Shown: one piece after another, positions 11,640 through 63,665 of the stretch
How positions within the stretch are numbered: the first letter of the stretch is position 1
How the letters are laid out: each line of letters opens with the position of its first letter
UHGV virus genome: UHGV-1483955
Origin: a virus
Direction: 5' to 3' (one strand)
DNA: 64,000 nucleotides
Translations under genes and position numbers: made by a program
Notes under the pieces: model-generated
Told to the model about the DNA's origin: nothing
What the model saw: only the letters and a program-made list of their open reading frames with translations
Databases searched by the model: none

Positions 11640-11779
11640 TGTATTTTTAAGTCACGAATGCTATCTTTTCGCATCATATTGACCTTTTAATCGTTCAGGC
11701 TTATAGTTCCGCCGTCGTAGCAAATTCTGCGACCGGGTTTAGCAGCCTGAATGATTGTGCGGACAGCCGCAGATATCCG

Positions 11780-11940
11780 ATATTGCGGTATTTTTGTGTC
11801 CGTAAAACCGCGTTACGCCCAAATTATGGTGGGGCGTGATGGGGAGGCTTCGGCCTGCTGGTTTCACAATCGCCAGTCTGCTAACCCCGTCACGTCCTGC
11901 CACCTGTTTAGCAGCGGGTAGCAGGTTGTTAAACCTGATT
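11780..11940 (+). ncRNA. candidate c4-type antisense RNA region upstream of icd
   Basis: Non-coding stretch between the operator and icd with complementary segments (CTGCTAA ... TTAGCAG); exact RNA ends cannot be set from sequence alone. Confidence 0.3.
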
Positions 11941-15351: not shown

Positions 15352-15474
15352 TACAATCGTTGCGGGTGCTTGAGGCTATCTGCTTCAGGCATTACCCGAA
15401 AAGCAGATAGAAGAAAGCCCCAGATAACATCACGCGTCCTGCAAGACGCTTAACATTAATCTGAGGCCATATCT

Positions 15475-15681
15475 ATGCTTAGCATACGTAGATTAGCCTC
15501 TTACCGACCAAAAGGTCAAGGAGAAGCAGGCTATGAAGCAGCAAAAAGCGATGTTAATCGCTCTGATCGTCATCTGTTTAACCGTCATTGTGACGGCACT
15601 GGTAACGAGGAAAGACCTCTGCGAGGTACGAATCCGAACCGGCCAGACGGAGGTCACTGTCTTCACAGCCTACGAATCTGA
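15475..15681 (+). CDS. mok: mok-like overlapping reading frame
   Basis: ORF starting 58 nt upstream of hok and overlapping it in another frame, as in hok/mok/sok loci. Confidence 0.4.
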   Translation: MLSIRRLASYRPKGQGEAGYEAAKSDVNRSDRHLFNRHCDGTGNEERPLRGTNPNRPDGGHCLHSLRI

Positions 15682-49729: not shown

Positions 49730-49961
49730 ACAGAACGAAAAAGCTATCGCTCAAATTGCTGATTATATCCCGCGTGCGTGCCGGGGTATGCAGTTGCAGG
49801 AAGCCAAAGCGCGCCTGGAGAAAAAAATTGCGCTCTATATTGATGACGGCTGTGATTCCGCCGTTCTTAACGCGGCGTTCGCACCAGCTCTTAACTGTCA
49901 CACTCGGGAGTCTTTTTTTTCGTGCATCGCAGCGCAACTCCGCCAAGGAGGCAACCAGTGA
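49722..49961 (+). CDS. small protein ending in AAQLRQGGNQ (79 aa)
   Basis: C-terminal motif and junction shared with ORF 51749..52483. Confidence 0.3.
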   Translation: MFKQNEKAIAQIADYIPRACRGMQLQEAKARLEKKIALYIDDGCDSAVLNAAFAPALNCHTRESFFSCIAAQLRQGGNQ

Positions 49962-50602
49962 GTAACCGTTTTTACATGATGTGCTTGCGTGAAACTGTGG
50001 GTAATAACGCCTCATTCCATTGCCATAACGGCAATGGTTACAGTTCTGATATCGATCGCGCTCATATTTACACGCTGGAAGAAGCCCAAAAAGCCTGGAA
50101 TTGTGGGCGAGATATCGATCAGCCTGTTTGTGCCGATAGTGTGGATGCAATGGCTGTGTGGCACGTTGATTGCCAGTACATCCCTACAGAAAGCCTGATT
50201 GAGTCAGATTGCACTGAGTATGTGGCCTACAAAAAAGGTAGCTGGAACGGCAACGATGTTTACTGGCTTCAACACGGTGGATTGCCAACAGATGACTTCA
50301 GTAAAGCGACCATCTTTAGCGTCGTCAACAAAAACGAACCAGGAATAGTTTGGTTGCCATTTTCCATTGCTGATGCAGCAAAGCGCCGGACGTTCAATAT
50401 CAATAACTTTAACCGCAGAACAATGGTTCAGGGCGCAGGGTTGGTCATGCCTGACTGGTTGAAAGAGCAGAACAGAAGAAAGAAGTCGCGAAGCGGGAAG
50501 GTGCGTTGGAATTGTCCGCATTGCGGAAAAATAACCTGGCAGTACAGCCCATATGATTTTGAAGGCTGTAGTGATTACAACTGTGAAGGATGGCGAGAAT
50601 GA
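49922..50602 (+). CDS. Cys-rich hypothetical protein (likely GTG start at 49958)
   Basis: Several Cys/His pairs incl. C-terminal CPHCGKITW...CSDYNCEGW. Confidence 0.35.
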   Translation: MHRSATPPRRQPVSNRFYMMCLRETVGNNASFHCHNGNGYSSDIDRAHIYTLEEAQKAWNCGRDIDQPVCADSVDAMAVWHVDCQYIPTESLIESDCTEYVAYKKGSWNGNDVYWLQHGGLPTDDFSKATIFSVVNKNEPGIVWLPFSIADAAKRRTFNINNFNRRTMVQGAGLVMPDWLKEQNRRKKSRSGKVRWNCPHCGKITWQYSPYDFEGCSDYNCEGWRE

Positions 50603-51465
50603 CAATTGACTATCAGGTACTGCGTGAGGCGGCAGAAAAGGCAACACCAGACGAATGGGTCGCATTTATTTCGACGGATACTGGTACTTATGCGGTGCAC
50701 ACGCCCGGTGATGAACGATGTGAAGACGTTATCAAATGGACCGGCTTTGATGGACAGAAAAATGCAGAGAACAACGCTCGTTATGTTGCCGCGTTCAACC
50801 CAAAGGTTGCACTGGAGCTGCTTGGTGAAATTAAGCGCCTGGAGGACACAAATATTGATGCTATGTGTCGAATTGCAGAGCTTGAGACTAATCTCGCGGC
50901 GCTGGCAGCGGAGAATGCGGCGCTGAAGGCCGGGGCTATGTATTTCTCATATGGCTCTGAATTTAGTTTCGAGTGTCACAAAACTGCTGAGGAGGCTATC
51001 GCTGCTGCTGAGGCTGCAATTGACGACTATAGAGGCGATGCTTGCGATGGATGGAGCGAAGAGGTCGAAAGCATTTGCTGGGGGGTAATTATTCAGCAGG
51101 CAACCAAGGTCGGTGAACGCAAGAAGAGGAAATGCGACAGAGTATCACCATGGATTGAAAGAGTTTGTGATTATGAGCTTCGACCTAATGTCGAAATCCC
51201 AGCCACCGATGCTTTCCTGTCTGAAATTCGTGCGGAAGCACGCAACGAGGGGATTAACTATACCGCCAGCCGTCTTGCTGCTGCGTTCAATCACGGATTT
51301 ATCAATAAGTCTTTGCGTGAAGTTTTCGACGTTACACGCATGATTTTGTCAGCGAAAGAAGAGTTGGCTAATGAAGCGCATCCGATTGATGGCCTGTCTG
51401 GTGAATATGCGGAGAAATCCCTTGAAGAATGGGCGGAACAAATTCGCAAAGGAAGCAGCCAGTGA
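50590..51465 (+). CDS. Ea22/Ead-like family protein
   Basis: N-terminus MTIDYQVLREAAEKATPDEWVA ... FNPKVALELLGEI then coiled coil. Confidence 0.5.
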   Translation: MARMTIDYQVLREAAEKATPDEWVAFISTDTGTYAVHTPGDERCEDVIKWTGFDGQKNAENNARYVAAFNPKVALELLGEIKRLEDTNIDAMCRIAELETNLAALAAENAALKAGAMYFSYGSEFSFECHKTAEEAIAAAEAAIDDYRGDACDGWSEEVESICWGVIIQQATKVGERKKRKCDRVSPWIERVCDYELRPNVEIPATDAFLSEIRAEARNEGINYTASRLAAAFNHGFINKSLREVFDVTRMILSAKEELANEAHPIDGLSGEYAEKSLEEWAEQIRKGSSQ

Positions 51466-51752
51466 ATATCGACACGACAATAACGATCGATACGCTCCTA
51501 AATACCGGTCTGGCACTTCTCGGTTGGCTTTACATCATGTCCCGCACATGGCGATGGCTGGGTTCCATTTTCCTAAAACAGTGGAAAAAACGGCGCAAAC
51601 AGGAACTACGCCAGAAGGCATTAGAAGCGTTCTATGACGCATTTGAGCTTAGCCGCATTGAACCAGGTACAACAGCCAGGATAGCGACAAAAGGCGACCT
51701 GATGATAGTGATGTTCCGACAGGAGAGAGCAGAGAAAGGGGAATCAGCATGA
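51429..51752 (+). CDS. small membrane protein (likely GTG start at 51462)
   Basis: Hydrophobic segment LALLGWLYIM; start overlaps upstream stop. Confidence 0.3.
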   Translation: MGGTNSQRKQPVNIDTTITIDTLLNTGLALLGWLYIMSRTWRWLGSIFLKQWKKRRKQELRQKALEAFYDAFELSRIEPGTTARIATKGDLMIVMFRQERAEKGESA

Positions 51753-52483
51753 AATTTTCCAAATTTTCTGAGTTGGTGAATCGTATTTTGTCCAACAACC
51801 ACAGCCATCGTCGCGATATGGATGTAACAATCGTTGTTCATTCGCCTGGCAGCATTGGTTCAACACCTTCAGTTGAGGTTCAGTCAATTCACGCTGGTTT
51901 TGATTGGGATTCCGGGAAAGTGCTTATTTTCCCATCACAGCCACTGACCACGCTAACACCAGAACAGATTACTGATATCACTGATAGTGTGCGCAAAGGT
52001 CAGTCTTGGCACGCATATCAGGAATACAAGAAGCATCAAGAGCAGTTGGAAAAATTGTCGATTGAACTGGATGCCGCAAAACAGCGCATTGCAGAGCTGG
52101 AGGGTAATCGCACGGCGCTGGCAGTGGAGAATGAGCTGGCTCGTAAGGCAGTTCAGGCATTCTGCGATGTTGTTGGCGACAACACCGAGGTTATCGCTGA
52201 GGTGGTTGGGCGAGATGGCGTTCTGGTTATTTTGGAGGCCATGAAGGCAACAGGAAATATGCCAGCCACCGATGCTTTCCTGGCTGAAGTGCGGGCGCAG
52301 GGCGTGGATGCTGCTATAGAAGCTGCAAAAAATCTGGTGGCCCAAGAATATGAGTATAAGGATTTCAAAGCGGCGCAGAGTGATTGCTGTATGCACCCTG
52401 GTTCAGACCTGGTAGGGAAGGTTGAAATGACTGAGTGGTTAGTTGACTTTGCTGCCCAGCTTCGCAAAGGAGGCAACCAGTGA
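51749..52483 (+). CDS. Ea22-region paralogue
   Basis: Shares PATDAFLAEVRA block with 50590..51465 and C-terminal AAQLRKGGNQ with 49722..49961. Confidence 0.4.
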   Translation: MKFSKFSELVNRILSNNHSHRRDMDVTIVVHSPGSIGSTPSVEVQSIHAGFDWDSGKVLIFPSQPLTTLTPEQITDITDSVRKGQSWHAYQEYKKHQEQLEKLSIELDAAKQRIAELEGNRTALAVENELARKAVQAFCDVVGDNTEVIAEVVGRDGVLVILEAMKATGNMPATDAFLAEVRAQGVDAAIEAAKNLVAQEYEYKDFKAAQSDCCMHPGSDLVGKVEMTEWLVDFAAQLRKGGNQ

Positions 52484-53070
52484 GCAAGATTGATTATCAA
52501 AAGCTTCGTGAAATCGCTGAAAAAACAAAAATTGCTGGTGAAGCACCTGTAATGCCCTTCGATCAGCGAATTAATGCGCTTAACGATTTTATGAAGCACT
52601 TTTCGCCAGATATCGCGCTGGCACTGCTGGATGAACTGGAAAGAAACCAGCAATACATCAAACGCCGCGACCAGGAGAACGAGGAAATTGCTCTTACGGT
52701 TGGGAAGCTGCTAATCGAAAACGGCCGGCTTGTTGCCGATACGCTACGCCACTTAGCTGATAACGAAATCGACTCTGATTATTTTGCTATCACCTCAACG
52801 AATGAGAACGGTACTGAAATTGATCATGAGATGGCTATTACCGATTACGCACTGCAAGCTGCCGGAACTGTAGACGAATTGGTTGCGGCGCTGGAATCCG
52901 CAGAGAAGCGCATAGCAGAACTGGAAGCACGGGAAATATCGCTCCCAGAACGTAGCAGCATGCTTCATCGAACAGATTTTCACGAGGATTACCAAACGGT
53001 AATGGCATACAAAGTTTCTGAGGTCATCGCTGCAATCCGCGCCGCTGGCATTCGCATCAAAGGAGAGTGA
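52480..53070 (+). CDS. Ea22/Ead-like family protein
   Basis: N-terminus SKIDYQKLREIAEK ... IALALLDELE; GTG start overlapping upstream stop. Confidence 0.45.
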   Translation: MSKIDYQKLREIAEKTKIAGEAPVMPFDQRINALNDFMKHFSPDIALALLDELERNQQYIKRRDQENEEIALTVGKLLIENGRLVADTLRHLADNEIDSDYFAITSTNENGTEIDHEMAITDYALQAAGTVDELVAALESAEKRIAELEAREISLPERSSMLHRTDFHEDYQTVMAYKVSEVIAAIRAAGIRIKGE

Positions 53071-53071
53071 T

Positions 53072-54034
53072 ATGAGCGCTATAACCAAAGAACGTATCAA
53101 ATTATTCATTAAAAATCCGCTTGATAACGGACTTACTCGTGGCGAACAAATGGAACTGGCACGAATTGCGCTGGCATCGCTGGAAGCAGAACCGGTGGCA
53201 TGGACTGATGAAGAGGAACTGCGCGATGTCAGGAAGTATGGTTTCGGTGAGATATTTCAGTGTCCGCCAGATAAATATGCGGACCCGCGTCGTGTAATCT
53301 CGCTGTATCGCGAGCTGCCAGCACCGGTAGTGCCAGATGATTGGCAACTCGTACCTAAGAAAATAACACTGGAAATGGAATGTGCTCTATCAAAAGCTGA
53401 TAGCTATGAAATTGGTTGGCTATGGGCATTGGCAGCCGCACCTAAATACGAAGTACAGAACGCTAAACGCGTGCAAAACGCGCTTAACGCCTGCCGCGCC
53501 GCCATGCTTCAGTCCGGAAACTTTCGGGAAAACAAGAATTCGTCAACCAATAATTTTCGGGAAATCGCGGAAACGTCAACCAACTATCCGGCAATTCCTA
53601 GTGAGGTGTTGTCCGCAATCCTGAAGGTTGCCAGGATTCGTGCCGATTTCGATGATTTTGACGGTGACAGGCGAGGTATCGGTGATTGTCTGGATGAGGC
53701 TGAGCAAGAGCTTATCGTTACCATTAACAAATATGCCAGTCAGTTGGCAGCAGAACCGATAGCGACTAATGACGTTCGAGAGCAGCAGACAGCCATTCCG
53801 CAAGTTCCGGTAACTCCGGATGGTTGGATAAGCTGTAGTGAGCGAATGCCGAATACCAAAACGGCCGTTCTTGTTGCCGTGGAGTTTGACAGGAAAGGTG
53901 ACTGGCGAATGAAATGGGCTACTTACATCCCGGGGCATCCTGACGCTAATGATGGGTGGATAATTCCTGGTGCGTCGTGGAAACCGTCACACTGGATGCC
54001 GCTACCAGAACCGCCGCAGGAGGTGAATCAATGA
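53072..54034 (+). CDS. DUF551-containing protein
   Basis: C-terminal WISCSERMPN...PSHWMPLPEPP, the DUF551 hallmark ending. Confidence 0.55.
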   Translation: MSAITKERIKLFIKNPLDNGLTRGEQMELARIALASLEAEPVAWTDEEELRDVRKYGFGEIFQCPPDKYADPRRVISLYRELPAPVVPDDWQLVPKKITLEMECALSKADSYEIGWLWALAAAPKYEVQNAKRVQNALNACRAAMLQSGNFRENKNSSTNNFREIAETSTNYPAIPSEVLSAILKVARIRADFDDFDGDRRGIGDCLDEAEQELIVTINKYASQLAAEPIATNDVREQQTAIPQVPVTPDGWISCSERMPNTKTAVLVAVEFDRKGDWRMKWATYIPGHPDANDGWIIPGASWKPSHWMPLPEPPQEVNQ

Positions 54035-54116
54035 GCTGGCCTGAAGCATTCGCAACGGTAGGAATTGTGATGGCGGCAGCACTGGGTTTGTATTCAATTT
54101 GTCGCTGGTGGTAACG

Positions 54117-54350
54117 ATGGGGAAATTAACTTTTGTAGTCGAATTTGAGGATGGTAAAGAGCCACCTGTTAGCGCCAATCTTGATGTTGCTGGTGGCAGG
54201 CTTGTTTCGGTTCTATTTGGTGACTACCGAGATGACTTCTTCCAACCAGAAGAAGTTGATGTAGTGCGAGAGGCATTAAACGAGTTAAGTGTTGATAACG
54301 ATGATGCTCATGCGGAAATCATCCAAAAAATGGAACTGCTAACTCACTAA
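54117..54350 (+). CDS. small acidic protein (77 aa from ATG 54117)
   Basis: Net strongly negative (many D/E); ORF track gives 54099 as upstream alternative start. Confidence 0.35.
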   Translation: MGKLTFVVEFEDGKEPPVSANLDVAGGRLVSVLFGDYRDDFFQPEEVDVVREALNELSVDNDDAHAEIIQKMELLTH

Positions 54351-54398
54351 ATTATCAATTATGGTGCTATCACCTACGACACCGAGAGAGAATTTATA

Positions 54399-54521
54399 AT
54401 GTCAAAAGTAAATGTTTTGATTTTTTCAGCAATTGTTGGCTTTGGTTTTACTGCCGGAGTGCAGATTTATATTACGTGGGAAAAAATCATCAACTACGCA
54501 TGGAGTTGTTTTATTAAGTGA
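54399..54521 (+). CDS. 40-aa hydrophobic peptide
   Basis: MSKVNVLIFSAIVGFGFTAGVQIYITWEKIINYAWSCFIK; not in ORF track. Confidence 0.3.
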   Translation: MSKVNVLIFSAIVGFGFTAGVQIYITWEKIINYAWSCFIK

Positions 54522-54528
54522 GGTAAGT

Positions 54529-54822
54529 ATGTGGAGAGGTAATAGTCATGGCAAAAGCCAGATGATACTTACCGAATATCAGTTTGACCATAAAACCAAT
54601 AAATCACGTTCAGTATATTTGCTTCGGCACAATAGCCGCGTAAGGAATACCGTGCTGGAGCAAAATCTGACTGTTGAAATGGATAATTACGGGGGCTTCA
54701 AGCCAACAATTTCGCTTGATGATTTTCCTCGTGGTTTAAGCGAAAGAGAAGCAATGCTGAAATTAGCAGAATGGCTACAAAGATTAAGCATTGCTATTGA
54801 AGATAACTGGTCTGAACCTTAA
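54529..54822 (+). CDS. hypothetical protein (97 aa)
   Basis: Internal ATG of ORF 54433..54822, preceded by GAGGTAA. Confidence 0.35.
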   Translation: MWRGNSHGKSQMILTEYQFDHKTNKSRSVYLLRHNSRVRNTVLEQNLTVEMDNYGGFKPTISLDDFPRGLSEREAMLKLAEWLQRLSIAIEDNWSEP

Positions 54823-54828
54823 ATTTAT

Positions 54829-55203
54829 ATGATGACACTAAAACATTTTCTTGACCGCCCATTATGGGCGGCAGCCGCAGGCTATGACTTTAATTATATG
54901 GATTGCATGTCTTATACCGCCAATGCATACGACCATTCCTTCAGTCTGCTGTTTAATTCTTTAAGAATATTGCCGCAAACAGAAGTTGGAGAGCTTCATT
55001 TATGGCTATTGGGCTTTATCGCGGCTGTCGTTGGTATTGCTGTATGGCCTTTTATTTTCTGGCTGGTGGCTGTTGTAGTGTGGGTTAAGTGCAAGACATA
55101 CCGGAAAAAGTATTTCTTAGGTGATGGAATGACTGATATTGCCAAAATGAACATTGAAGAATGGACTAAGGAATGTGAAAAGAAATGGCGCAAAAAGAAA
55201 TGA
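54829..55203 (+). CDS. membrane protein (124 aa)
   Basis: Hydrophobic stretch LWLLGFIAAVVGIAVWPFIFWLVAVVVWV. Confidence 0.4.
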   Translation: MMTLKHFLDRPLWAAAAGYDFNYMDCMSYTANAYDHSFSLLFNSLRILPQTEVGELHLWLLGFIAAVVGIAVWPFIFWLVAVVVWVKCKTYRKKYFLGDGMTDIAKMNIEEWTKECEKKWRKKK

Positions 55204-55835
55204 CCAGAATCACTGAAGAGCGCATATCAGAGATTATTTCCCGTATCGAAATGTATGGTCACGGTGCTGGATATACGGCAGATGAAGTATTGGAAATAGC
55301 CCAGCAGATGCTGGCCTTGAGACAAAAAGAGCAACATGAAAGTAATACGTGTAGATTGAATTTTGAGCATTGGCTGGAACAGCAACGCGGGAAAATCGAT
55401 GTGGACTGTGGTTGTGTGTCCACTGAAACATTCATGCACTGGCTGCGGGTAGCTTACGAGGCTGGCAACTATCCGGATATTCCGGATAGTTCGGTGCCAG
55501 CACCAGGAAAGGGCGTCACCGGTGAACGTATCCGAATTAAGCCGCATGTTTATCGCGAACTGGTTAACCGTCTCCACGATACAGCGATCAAGTGTGCTGG
55601 CACCCAGCAATTACGAGAAAGAATTAGCCGTGTTTTGGGCGACGTTATTACACCAGATCATCATAAACAAGCCGAGAAAAGTGGCCTGGAAAGGTGTCGC
55701 CTTGAGGCGGCATTAAACATTAAGCCGGGGCATACGCTTGGCATTATTGATGCACTATTGGTTCATAAGATGGCCAGGGCTTTATTGCCGCTGGTGGCTG
55801 AAAAGCATGAGGTGGACCATGCCAACGAAAGCTGA
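55185..55835 (+). CDS. hypothetical protein (216 aa)
   Basis: Overlapping stop/start with neighbours. Confidence 0.4.
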   Translation: MAQKEMTRITEERISEIISRIEMYGHGAGYTADEVLEIAQQMLALRQKEQHESNTCRLNFEHWLEQQRGKIDVDCGCVSTETFMHWLRVAYEAGNYPDIPDSSVPAPGKGVTGERIRIKPHVYRELVNRLHDTAIKCAGTQQLRERISRVLGDVITPDHHKQAEKSGLERCRLEAALNIKPGHTLGIIDALLVHKMARALLPLVAEKHEVDHANES

Positions 55836-56103
55836 ATTACAGGTGCGCGTAGATGAGCTTGAAAAAGAGAACGCGAGCCTCAAAAAAATGCTGTCGCGGG
55901 CGGAAAGGGAATTATCAGGCAAATTATTGCCAGAAGAACTGCCACCAGCAGATATACCTGATCGAGTGTCCTGGTGGATGAAGTATTTCCGTGCACCGTG
56001 GGAGGCGTTTTGGTGCTACGACCATCGCAGATGGTGTGATGAACTTGATAGCAATTTTCCCTACTTTGCGGAAGGGAACACCTGCCCTCAATGCAGGGGA
56101 TAG
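55738..56103 (+). CDS. small protein with coiled-coil N-terminus and C-terminal Cys pair
   Basis: ELQVRVDELEKENASLKKML ... CPQCRG. Confidence 0.35.
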   Translation: MALLMHYWFIRWPGLYCRWWLKSMRWTMPTKAELQVRVDELEKENASLKKMLSRAERELSGKLLPEELPPADIPDRVSWWMKYFRAPWEAFWCYDHRRWCDELDSNFPYFAEGNTCPQCRG

Positions 56104-56438
56104 CATTTGACGAAATCGATCACCCTATCCTGAACTTCAGAAAGAAGGTCTTTTTCACGCGCCAGGACGTCAGGATATTGACGTTCTGGCCTTACCAGAT
56201 GCCGGAGCTTCCCATTAAGCAGAATGGCCTCAGAAAACACTTTTACGCTGTGCTTTATCCCCTCTGTTTCACTTTTCAGCGTCAAAATAAAGCGCAATTG
56301 CTTATTAGCCTGATTCGGATTCAATACACGAATTTGCAGTTCGTCTATGCTGTTTCGCAATGGGATTGATGCCACCACACTGGTGCAGTCTCTGATTGTC
56401 TGAATTGAACGGCTAACATTGAGAACGTTATTGTGCAT
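56088..56438 (-). CDS. hypothetical protein on opposite strand (116 aa)
   Basis: ATG at 56438; convergent with upstream plus-strand genes. Confidence 0.3.
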   Translation of the reverse strand: MHNNVLNVSRSIQTIRDCTSVVASIPLRNSIDELQIRVLNPNQANKQLRFILTLKSETEGIKHSVKVFSEAILLNGKLRHLVRPERQYPDVLAREKDLLSEVQDRVIDFVKCYPLH

Positions 56439-56470
56439 GTGCCTGATCCACTAACTCCTGGAGGTTTCTT

Positions 56471-56722
56471 GTGTCAGATCGAAATATAGCAGCTAAAAGC
56501 CAGGAAGAGCGAGACAAGGTGAACGTAGACCTTGCCGCCAGCGGCGTTGCTTACAAAGAACGGCTGAATATACCTGTGATTGCAGAGCAGGTGGCCCGTG
56601 AGCAACCGGAAAACCTGCGCGCCTATTTCATGGAACGGCTACGGCACTACCGGCAGTTAAGCCTCCAGTTGCCAAAAGGGAGCGATCCGGTGTATCAGAA
56701 CGAGGATGCACCAAAAAAATAA
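56471..56722 (+). CDS. hot: DNA polymerase III theta-subunit homologue (Hot)
   Basis: [43 protein letters not shown] resembles HolE/theta. Confidence 0.7.
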
Positions 56723-56807
56723 CGGCAAGATGGGGGAGAAATGTGATTAGCCCCCAGCGTGGCGCGCCTACAAACCCCGCTTTCACAAACTATGCCTTTT
56801 CAATGTA

Positions 56808-56827
56808 TACTGTATGAATAAACAGTA
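56808..56827. promoter_or_regulatory. LexA box (SOS operator)
   Basis: TACTGTATGAATAAACAGTA (CTGT-N8-ACAG) ~20 nt upstream of humD. Confidence 0.7.
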
Positions 56828-56845
56828 TCATTGAGGTAAAACGCT

Positions 56846-57235
56846 ATGGGCTTCCCTTCTCCTGCGGCGGATTATGTTGAAAGCCGAATTTCTCTTGATC
56901 AGCAGATAATTAGACATCCTTCAGCGACCTACTTCATGCGGGCAGCTGATAGCCATCACCGTGAGGGAATATTGCAGGGTGCTTTGCTGGTGGTTGATTC
57001 CTCGCTTACTCCGGTTGATGGTTCTCTGCTTGTGTGCGCTATGGAGGGTGAATATCGCATAAAGAGATACAGGAAGTATCCGCGCCAGCACCTGGAGGAC
57101 TTAAGCACCGGGAAGAAAGAGGCGTTACCAGTAGATGACGATGGATACACGGGCAGTAATGCTGTTTTTGGTGTGATCACTCATGTCATCAATGATGCCC
57201 GAAGTGGGGAATTTGATGATTGTCCGGTTATTTAA
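56846..57235 (+). CDS. humD: UmuD-like protein (HumD)
   Basis: 129 aa, S24 peptidase-like / UmuD' fold pattern (RISLDQQI...ATYFMRA...GALLVVDSS...). Confidence 0.85.
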   Translation: MGFPSPAADYVESRISLDQQIIRHPSATYFMRAADSHHREGILQGALLVVDSSLTPVDGSLLVCAMEGEYRIKRYRKYPRQHLEDLSTGKKEALPVDDDGYTGSNAVFGVITHVINDARSGEFDDCPVI

Positions 57236-63440: not shown

Positions 63441-63457
63441 GATTTATTAGTGCATTT
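63441..63457. promoter_or_regulatory. C1 operator-like site
   Basis: GATTTATTAGTGCATTT, reverse complement near consensus. Confidence 0.5.
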
Positions 63458-63665
63458 ATTGTGAGTCTGGCTGGTTAGTGGCCATGAGATATTCGATTGT
63501 GTCAGTGAGATCATCCAGGTCGTCTTGGGTGATGCGGTACTCCTGATTGGATATCTTTGAGTAGTGTTCAGCAATGGCGCGGGCAGCGTCGGTTTCGGCG
63601 GGGTCTACAGATAAAGCGTTAGAGCAATGTCTAACGTCGTCGATGGTTGGTGGAATGAAAGCCAT
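63456..63665 (-). CDS. coi: Coi (C1 inactivator)
   Basis: 69-aa acidic ORF directly upstream of c1 on same strand; GAGG ribosome-binding site. Confidence 0.75.
   Translation of the reverse strand: MAFIPPTIDDVRHCSNALSVDPAETDAARAIAEHYSKISNQEYRITQDDLDDLTDTIEYLMATNQPDSQ

Follow-up and report, generated by a model that had tools for sequence, protein, structure and literature searches.

DNA mimics of phages and plasmids are recognized by a high content of aspartate and glutamate and a low pI. T7 Ocr, T7 gp5.9, T4 Arn, PBS2 Ugi, phi29 p56, lambda Gam, and the plasmid protein ArdA are small proteins with a pI of about 4 that consist to more than 20% of these two residues; they possess no enzymatic motifs, are expressed early, and are found among the host-takeover genes. 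What decides membership is a surface on which carboxylates are spaced like the phosphates of DNA, and the occupation of the DNA-binding site of a target protein in competition with DNA. In lambda, the early-left slots house genes for host takeover and anti-restriction, such as ral, gam, and kil. Small size and acidity also characterize type II antitoxins of the MazE type, in which an N-terminal beta dimerization module is combined with an acidic C-terminal binding region. A further set of small proteins, non-essential and mosaic, is encoded in the lambda exo-xis region (Ea8.5, Orf63, Orf61, Orf60a, Orf73, and Ea22); ea22, ea8.5, and orf60a/61/63 act on the lysis-lysogeny decision, on lysogenization, and on induction (PMC3824215, PMC7093339), and Orf73 is a homolog of TraR, the type of zinc-finger protein that reprograms the host RNA polymerase (PMC9239242). 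Membership in the mimic class does not require homology or a shared fold, as the sequences and structures of its known representatives are “extremely divergent” (PMC3902945).

Here we describe a gene whose product resembles members of each of these groups. It was studied in a window of 64,000 nucleotides (UHGV virus genome UHGV-1483955), by which we mean the whole stretch of DNA that was analyzed, and it occupies positions 54117..54350 of its + strand, stop codon included. The encoded protein of 77 amino acids (MGKLTFVVEFEDGKEPPVSANLDVAGGRLVSVLFGDYRDDFFQPEEVDVVREALNELSVDNDDAHAEIIQKMELLTH) is that of accession WP_000517421.1. With the phage DNA mimics it has in common its small size, a pI of about 4, an aspartate and glutamate content above 20%, the lack of enzymatic motifs, a predicted early expression, and a position among host-takeover genes; unlike mimic genes, which come first in virulent phages or belong to the leading region of plasmids, it resides in the accessory regions of temperate phages and phage-plasmids. 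It shares its genomic slot and its small, non-essential, and mosaic character with the lambda exo-xis proteins, but it has no zinc-binding motif, is much more acidic, and is also present on P1-like plasmids. A length of about 80 amino acids, acidity, and a beta module at the N-terminus ahead of an acidic C-terminus are reminiscent of MazE/AbrB antitoxins, from which it differs by the absence of a profile match and of a conserved toxin, and by a predicted topology without a neighbor in the PDB. Our tentative reading, to which we give well under an even chance, is that the protein is an early-made stoichiometric inhibitor, a decoy that would act on the nucleic-acid-binding surface of a host or defense protein.

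The window represents a P1-like phage-plasmid. The 3-kb neighborhood of the gene matches the Punavirus genomes SJ46, vB_EcoM-813R1, RCS47, P1, P7, and D6, as well as 584 plasmids in PLSDB, most of which are 90-100 kb in size and non-mobilizable. Rfam matches to immI RNAs, the sok antitoxin RNA, and three tRNAs (11701-11907, 15364-15538, 32210-32360, and 34364-34436) confirm the P1-like backbone; the P1 immI C4 antisense RNA is found at 11701-11907, and the immI matches include its a1/b1 targets. The acidic gene is part of a run of genes, all in the same orientation on the + strand and closely spaced or overlapping, that extends from about 47.9 to 56.1 kb. This run starts with genes for a phrog_874 protein, a PAPS-reductase-like protein, two Ea22-like proteins, a DUF4752 protein, and a 320-amino-acid DUF551 fusion; the acidic gene then follows, together with a 40-amino-acid membrane peptide and proteins of phrog_1258, phrog_2638, phrog_21459/60, and phrog_3797, and after these come hot, humD, and phd/doc, just downstream. 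An earlier note, made from the letters of this DNA, had assigned the gene to an accessory block, and this placement holds: the block upstream of hot-humD-phd-doc is a mosaic of Ea22, DUF4752, and DUF551 genes. The window copy sits in a transplanted block of early-left-type genes on a P1-like plasmid. In P1-like phage-plasmids, the equivalent of this block has been described as “highly variable region 8” (PMC9603915), and about 30% of the genes of P1-like elements are known to be exchanged with other elements (PMC10879196). The PAPS-reductase-like gene (48651-49529, + strand), at the head of the block, encodes a protein of 292 amino acids (PAPS_reduct, E 3e-9; phrog_424, E 4e-93); phage proteins with a PAPS-reductase domain are candidates for DNA-modification or anti-defense roles.

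A mechanically called open reading frame for the acidic protein spans 54099..54350 (+ strand) and comprises 83 amino acids from a TTG start at 54099. Since its homologs all open with MGK/MSK-x-TF, the true start is the ATG at 54117, which leaves 77 residues, the size that the earlier note had estimated when it described a protein with many acidic and few basic residues; counted from this ATG, there are indeed 9 D, 9 E, 3 K, 3 R, and 2 H. A Shine-Dalgarno-like GGTGG, read from the sequence, is located at 54107..54111 (+ strand), 5 nucleotides upstream of the ATG. Because this motif falls within the final codons of an upstream open reading frame of 27 codons (stop codon TAA at 54112-54114), translation of the acidic gene may be coupled to that of its small neighbor. 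A scan of positions 47000-57000 for sigma-70 promoters and terminators returned fewer promoter-like sites than shuffled sequence did and none close upstream of the acidic gene; nor was there an Rfam match near it. In the plasmid pC5104, which is 100% identical here, the RefSeq label of WP_000517421.1 is “hypothetical protein.”

Both neighbors of the gene are small hydrophobic reading frames. The 27-codon frame at 54031-54114 (+ strand; MSWPEAFATVGIVMAAALGLYSICRWW) is unannotated; its ATG overlaps the stop codon of the DUF551 gene (ATGA), and its own stop lies 2 nucleotides before the ATG of the acidic gene. Several hundred E. coli chromosomes contain the segment 54000-54114 at 88-90% identity, in every case at the 3' terminus of a DUF551 gene; as this similarity ends exactly at 54114/54115, we take the gene boundary to be a recombination junction. 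On the other side, the 40-codon frame at 54399-54521 (+ strand; MSKVNVLIFSAIVGFGFTAGVQIYITWEKIINYAWSCFIK) is preceded by the purine-rich GAGAGAGAA and matches phrog_5525 over its full length (E 1e-24). It has been left unannotated in RefSeq plasmids, which show a gap between the acidic gene and the next gene. It probably encodes a genuine small membrane protein, and among P1-like plasmids it always accompanies the acidic gene.

The protein matches phrog_3876, a family of unknown function, over its entire length (all 77 residues aligned to all 77 profile positions; E 6e-53, 178 bits), and both length and sequence of the family are kept across Enterobacterales down to about 41-45% identity. A word-indexed search returned 106 relatives and about 457 when a profile was used as the query; an HMM search run exhaustively over 1.84 billion representatives returned 153, and a scan of one genome per species 17 loci. 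The genera of these 17 loci include Escherichia, Citrobacter, Enterobacter, Erwinia, Pantoea, Proteus, Providencia, Serratia, Rouxiella, Yersinia, and Buttiauxella. Relatives were confined to Enterobacterales with the exception of one contig labeled Acinetobacter idrijaensis (JQCU01000559.1); since this contig is only 369 bp long and its copy is 99% identical to the E. coli protein, it probably reflects assembly contamination and not an extension of the host range. None of the relatives recovered by the word-based, profile, or exhaustive searches bears a name other than “hypothetical” or “uncharacterized,” and searches of a literature library by accession, peptide motif, and topic turned up no paper on the family. 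The acidic gene is an orphan among accessory genes, but its kind is well known, that of the small acidic early proteins of temperate phages.

The family is common, on plasmids and in Enterobacterales prophages alike. The exact protein sequence is present on at least 1000 contigs, and the gene is carried by 223 PLSDB plasmids and by about 191 of 5426 complete E. coli genomes (about 3.5%), where nearly all copies are plasmid-borne. It is optional on P1-like elements: it is absent from P1, P7, and RCS47, the last of which carries eaa and an ASCH gene at this place. Such dispensability would fit a passenger reading frame that drifts, devoid of a selectable function, in a recombination-prone accessory block. 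We regard this explanation as highly improbable, because the comparison with the near-identical P1-like plasmid copy in locus L009 revealed 11 synonymous codon differences versus 1 non-synonymous one, the conservation of the gene extends over several Enterobacterales families, and its N-terminal part is conserved as protein even though synonymous sites are saturated. A second near-identical plasmid copy, in locus L008, differs by 3 synonymous and 1 non-synonymous codons. Judged by these codon comparisons, the gene is real and under purifying selection.

Acidity is the most conspicuous property of the protein. Eighteen of its 77 residues are aspartate or glutamate, the net charge is about -12, and the pI is 4.16, values that agree with the high D/E content and low pI by which the DNA-mimic class is recognized. 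When a crude set of 86 non-overlapping open reading frames was taken from the window, the protein ranked first in negative charge per residue, and it also ranked first in charge density among the 29 frames of at most 120 amino acids. Among about 40 aligned members of the family, the net charge ranges from -3 to -16 with a mean of -11, and the C-terminal half contributes -7 on average. Acidity thus persists across the family although the C-terminal sequence diverges, and it is found in the homologs from distant genera as well (Erwinia, Pantoea, Proteus, Providencia, and Serratia; net charge -6 to -15). Some members are only mildly acidic, with -5 or -6 in a subgroup from Enterobacter; the value of -3 belongs to a single sequence (P0089) whose C-terminal third aligns poorly and which may be aberrant. 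At nine acidic positions, conservation reaches at least 75% (E9, E11, D12, E15, D36, D39, D40, E45, and D48). Acidity alone is weak evidence for a decoy; it is not unique to this protein in the window, as the product of 39550-40278, with a net charge of -34, matches a PHROG annotated as tail protein.

Alignments and AlphaFold2 models divide the protein into two parts. The N-terminal module (residues 1-40; 54117..54236, + strand) contains predicted beta strands at residues 5-9 and 28-33 and a set of near-invariant positions (T5, V7, E9, D12, G13, E15, P16, G26, G27, D36, Y37, and R38). It is followed by an acidic helical hairpin (residues 41-77; 54237..54347, + strand) with predicted helices at 44-56 and 62-74, which is variable in sequence and constant in acidity and ends in a conserved K-x-(E/D)-L-L-T. 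At least three subtypes of this C-terminal part can be distinguished: ...ELLT[YH], ...FEVWCDEF..NLMG, and ...C(E/K)DFEV.YDEVVAKL. Helical-wheel angles indicate that helix 44-56 is amphipathic, with E45, D48, E52, and E56 on its solvent side. The model built from 76 sequences reached a mean pLDDT of 90 and a pTM of 0.60; it is compact, adds a short helix at 37-40 to the elements named above, and displays nothing that would suggest an enzyme, a transmembrane segment, or a signal sequence. In a model made earlier from 39 sequences (pLDDT 80), residues 18-36 formed a hairpin; the two models differ in the conserved segment 10-27, which is a hairpin strand with 39 sequences and a loop with 76, and the predicted fold of the N-terminal module is accordingly provisional. 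Given that hot and humD are located nearby, we also considered a beta-clamp-binding motif at the C-terminus; this was rejected by inspection, as K-x-E-L-L-T has neither the glutamine nor the spacing of QL[SD]LF.

The N-terminal module is not restricted to this family. Profile searches often returned matches to positions 1-36 or 1-40 only, and residues 1-36 head many proteins of 60-220 amino acids with unrelated C-termini, among them DUF551-like (with a W...HW.P.P motif), coiled-coil, and Ea22-like ones; the match to phrog_6925 is likewise limited to residues 3-39. We rejected the idea that the conservation of this segment reflects a DNA or RNA element, since about half of the codons for identical residues differ and Rfam returned no match nearby; with synonymous sites saturated in this manner, the conservation of the module is at the protein level. 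Residues 1-36 being the best-conserved part, and the same module heading proteins of 90-220 amino acids with different C-termini, the protein could be an adaptor or regulatory short form whose module co-assembles or competes with longer module-bearing proteins (DUF551-type or coiled-coil fusions), the acidic tail then being secondary. A module HMM run over the window and 12 other loci (L001, L003-L013) detected one module-bearing gene per locus, which led us to dismiss a co-encoded paralog and makes the adaptor explanation improbable.

An exchange of heads is also seen elsewhere in the window. The products of 53072-54034 and 55185-55835 (both + strand) share an N-terminal module, as both match phrog_60 from residue 1, and differ in their C-termini, which are DUF551 in the former and phrog_21459 in the latter. 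Taken together with the module of the acidic protein, this pair shows “head-swapping” to be common throughout the pool from which these genes come.

Searches against known families and structures gave no relative of defined function. Scans of the protein against Pfam, NCBIfam, and PADLOC returned only noise, and the Pfam scan of 76 aligned members found no recurrent family; in particular, it contained no Ead_Ea22 or zf-dskA_traR match, as was also the case for the protein itself. Weak matches to DUF1877 in 5 of the 76 members (best E 0.005) lose their significance once the 76 queries are allowed for. Neither phmmer nor a profile hmmsearch against all PDB chains yielded anything below E 0.25, and no mimic was among the weak matches; alignments to acetolactate synthase and Lin1889 (E of 0.25 or higher) were set aside as chance matches. 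With Foldseek, the best hits of the two AlphaFold models in the PDB had E values of 1.0 and 4.4, and that of the first model in BFVD had 0.55, so that no structural neighbor emerged. The PDB set contains all solved DNA mimics as well as the solved exo-xis proteins (Ea8.5, Orf63, and the C-terminal domain of Ea22), and given that none of them was matched, we conclude that the acidic protein has no detectable relationship to any of these. By sequence and by fold, there was no similarity in the PDB to Ocr, ArdA, Ugi, p56, Arn, Gam, or gp5.9, nor to AcrIIA4, DMP12/19, SAUGI, DinI, and other mimics. As known mimics share no common sequence or fold, these missing matches do not refute mimicry and would be expected of a new mimic.

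The same searches bear on an antitoxin-like function, in which the protein would neutralize, in the manner of MazE, a basic toxin, which would be either a neighboring small membrane peptide or a toxin-antitoxin or abortive-infection effector of the host. Its size, its charge, and the modeled succession of beta module and helices resemble type II antitoxins, and it is flanked by two small hydrophobic reading frames, 54031-54114 (27 codons) and 54399-54521 (40 codons, phrog_5525). However, no match to SpoVT/AbrB, RHH, Phd, or any other antitoxin family of Pfam was found in the 76 members at E of 1 or below, and neither a conserved adjacent toxin nor an antitoxin DNA-binding domain is present in the family; the neighbors vary from locus to locus (xis, int, NinX, DUF7694, and TraR-like genes), and the 27-codon frame goes along with the DUF551 gene instead of the acidic one. 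We therefore consider an antitoxin unlikely to be the answer, by a wide margin.

The setting of the homologs in prophages was surveyed in 22 loci. In 11 of them, a co-oriented gene for a cI-type repressor precedes the homolog by 2.3-5.8 kb; in 7, an integrase gene follows 0.3-2.7 kb downstream, and in 4, xis is directly downstream. The genes gam, recT, erf, ssb, and that for a Dam methylase stand between repressor and homolog. This arrangement indicates that the usual prophage position corresponds to the slot of lambda ea22/ea8.5 in the exo-xis region; the chromosomal homologs occupy this early-left, pL-distal position in the same orientation as xis and int. Departures exist: the homologs of Proteus and Providencia lie earlier, between an N-like gene and erf/ssb, and a distant relative in an epsilon15-like Salmonella phage is found just before the terminase genes. 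No neighbor is universal across the 22 loci. A TraR/DksA-type zinc-finger gene is present in five, and in four loci its stop codon overlaps the start of the homolog (L010, 5786-6001; L012, 5786-6001; L013, 1873-2088; L025, 5768-6001), which suggests translational coupling and possibly a link to the control of RNA polymerase.

This setting speaks for a developmental modulator of the exo-xis type, which would tune lysis-lysogeny, induction, or the physiology of the host through protein-protein contacts and would play no part in mimicry or defense. Its candidate target is possibly the transcription machinery, engaged together with the adjacent TraR/Orf73-like factor. In addition to the position of the homologs between the TraR/Orf73-like gene and xis/int and to the documented effects of characterized exo-xis genes on lysogenization and induction, the window gene itself resides among Ea22-like, DUF4752, and DUF551 genes typical of an exo-xis-type region. 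Set against this are the PDB searches, which revealed no homology in sequence or fold to characterized exo-xis proteins (Ea8.5, Orf63, Ea22, and Orf73); the presence of the TraR-like neighbor in only 5 of the 22 loci, and its absence from the window block, which has no C4 zinc-finger reading frame; and the retention of the gene on plasmids of the P1 type, in which lysis or lysogeny is decided by a circuit (C1/immI, C4 RNA) that is unrelated to that of lambda. We rate the modulator as nearly as likely as the decoy, likewise well short of an even chance.

The decoy that we tentatively prefer would work as follows. A temperate phage would make, early on, a small, soluble, acidic protein of two parts; in integrated lambdoid prophages, it would be expressed from the early-left (pL-type) operon. 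The N-terminal beta module (residues 1-40) would probably be a unit of folding, oligomerization, or docking, and the acidic helical hairpin (residues 41-77) would provide the working surface. This hairpin may bind, in a stoichiometric manner, to a positively charged surface by which a host or defense protein contacts nucleic acids, with a restriction or other defense nuclease or a nucleoid, replication, or transcription factor as candidate targets, and the surface of the target would then be blocked by an electrostatic, DNA-mimic-like decoy. A stoichiometric binder is suggested because the protein is small and soluble, possesses no catalytic motif, is encoded in an early operon, and has kept its charge despite drift. 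The conserved acidity, the modular architecture, and the early-operon location are observations; from them we infer the binding of a protein, the identity of that protein, and the imitation of DNA.

Two further observations speak for the decoy: the acidic stripe on the amphipathic first helix, in a C-terminal part that retains its acidity while its sequence diverges, and the proximity of prophage homologs to gam and orphan Dam methylase genes in the early-left operon. Against it stand the lack of resemblance, in sequence or fold, to any solved mimic or other characterized protein in the PDB and BFVD, and the location of those acidic residues whose conservation is strictest: they belong to the N-terminal module, which also occurs in proteins that do not look like mimics, such as DUF551 fusions. 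Moreover, the characterized lambda genes of the corresponding region (ea22, ea8.5, and orf60a/61/63) act on the choice between lysis and lysogeny and not on defense (PMC3824215, PMC7093339). In its strict form, which had been the proposal of the earlier note, the protein is a DNA mimic that blocks restriction or BREX; this is a subset of the decoy reading, and we hold it to be doubtful. The same low confidence applies to a more far-reaching version, according to which a DNA-mimicking hairpin, mounted on a portable module of 36 residues that temperate enterobacterial phages would also fuse to DUF551-type and coiled-coil domains, and spread by P1-like phage-plasmids through about 3.5% of complete E. 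coli genomes, would constitute a new decoy family for anti-defense or host takeover.

Should inhibition of restriction or of another defense be confirmed, the family would be a new and structurally unprecedented anti-defense family, and it would provide the first functional handle on the widely shuffled N-terminal module of the exo-xis/DUF551/Ea22 gene pool. The vehicles of the gene, P1-like phage-plasmids, also move antibiotic-resistance genes. A defense or host target would raise the importance of the protein because its predicted fold has no known neighbor and its gene is common on these phage-plasmids; as a developmental modulator, or with a weak phenotype, it would be one of many orphan accessory genes. 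A reading frame elsewhere in the window poses the same question as the acidic protein: located at 63456-63665 on the - strand, it encodes 69 amino acids with a net charge of -10, matches phrog_2079 (unknown function), and is the second most acidic per residue.
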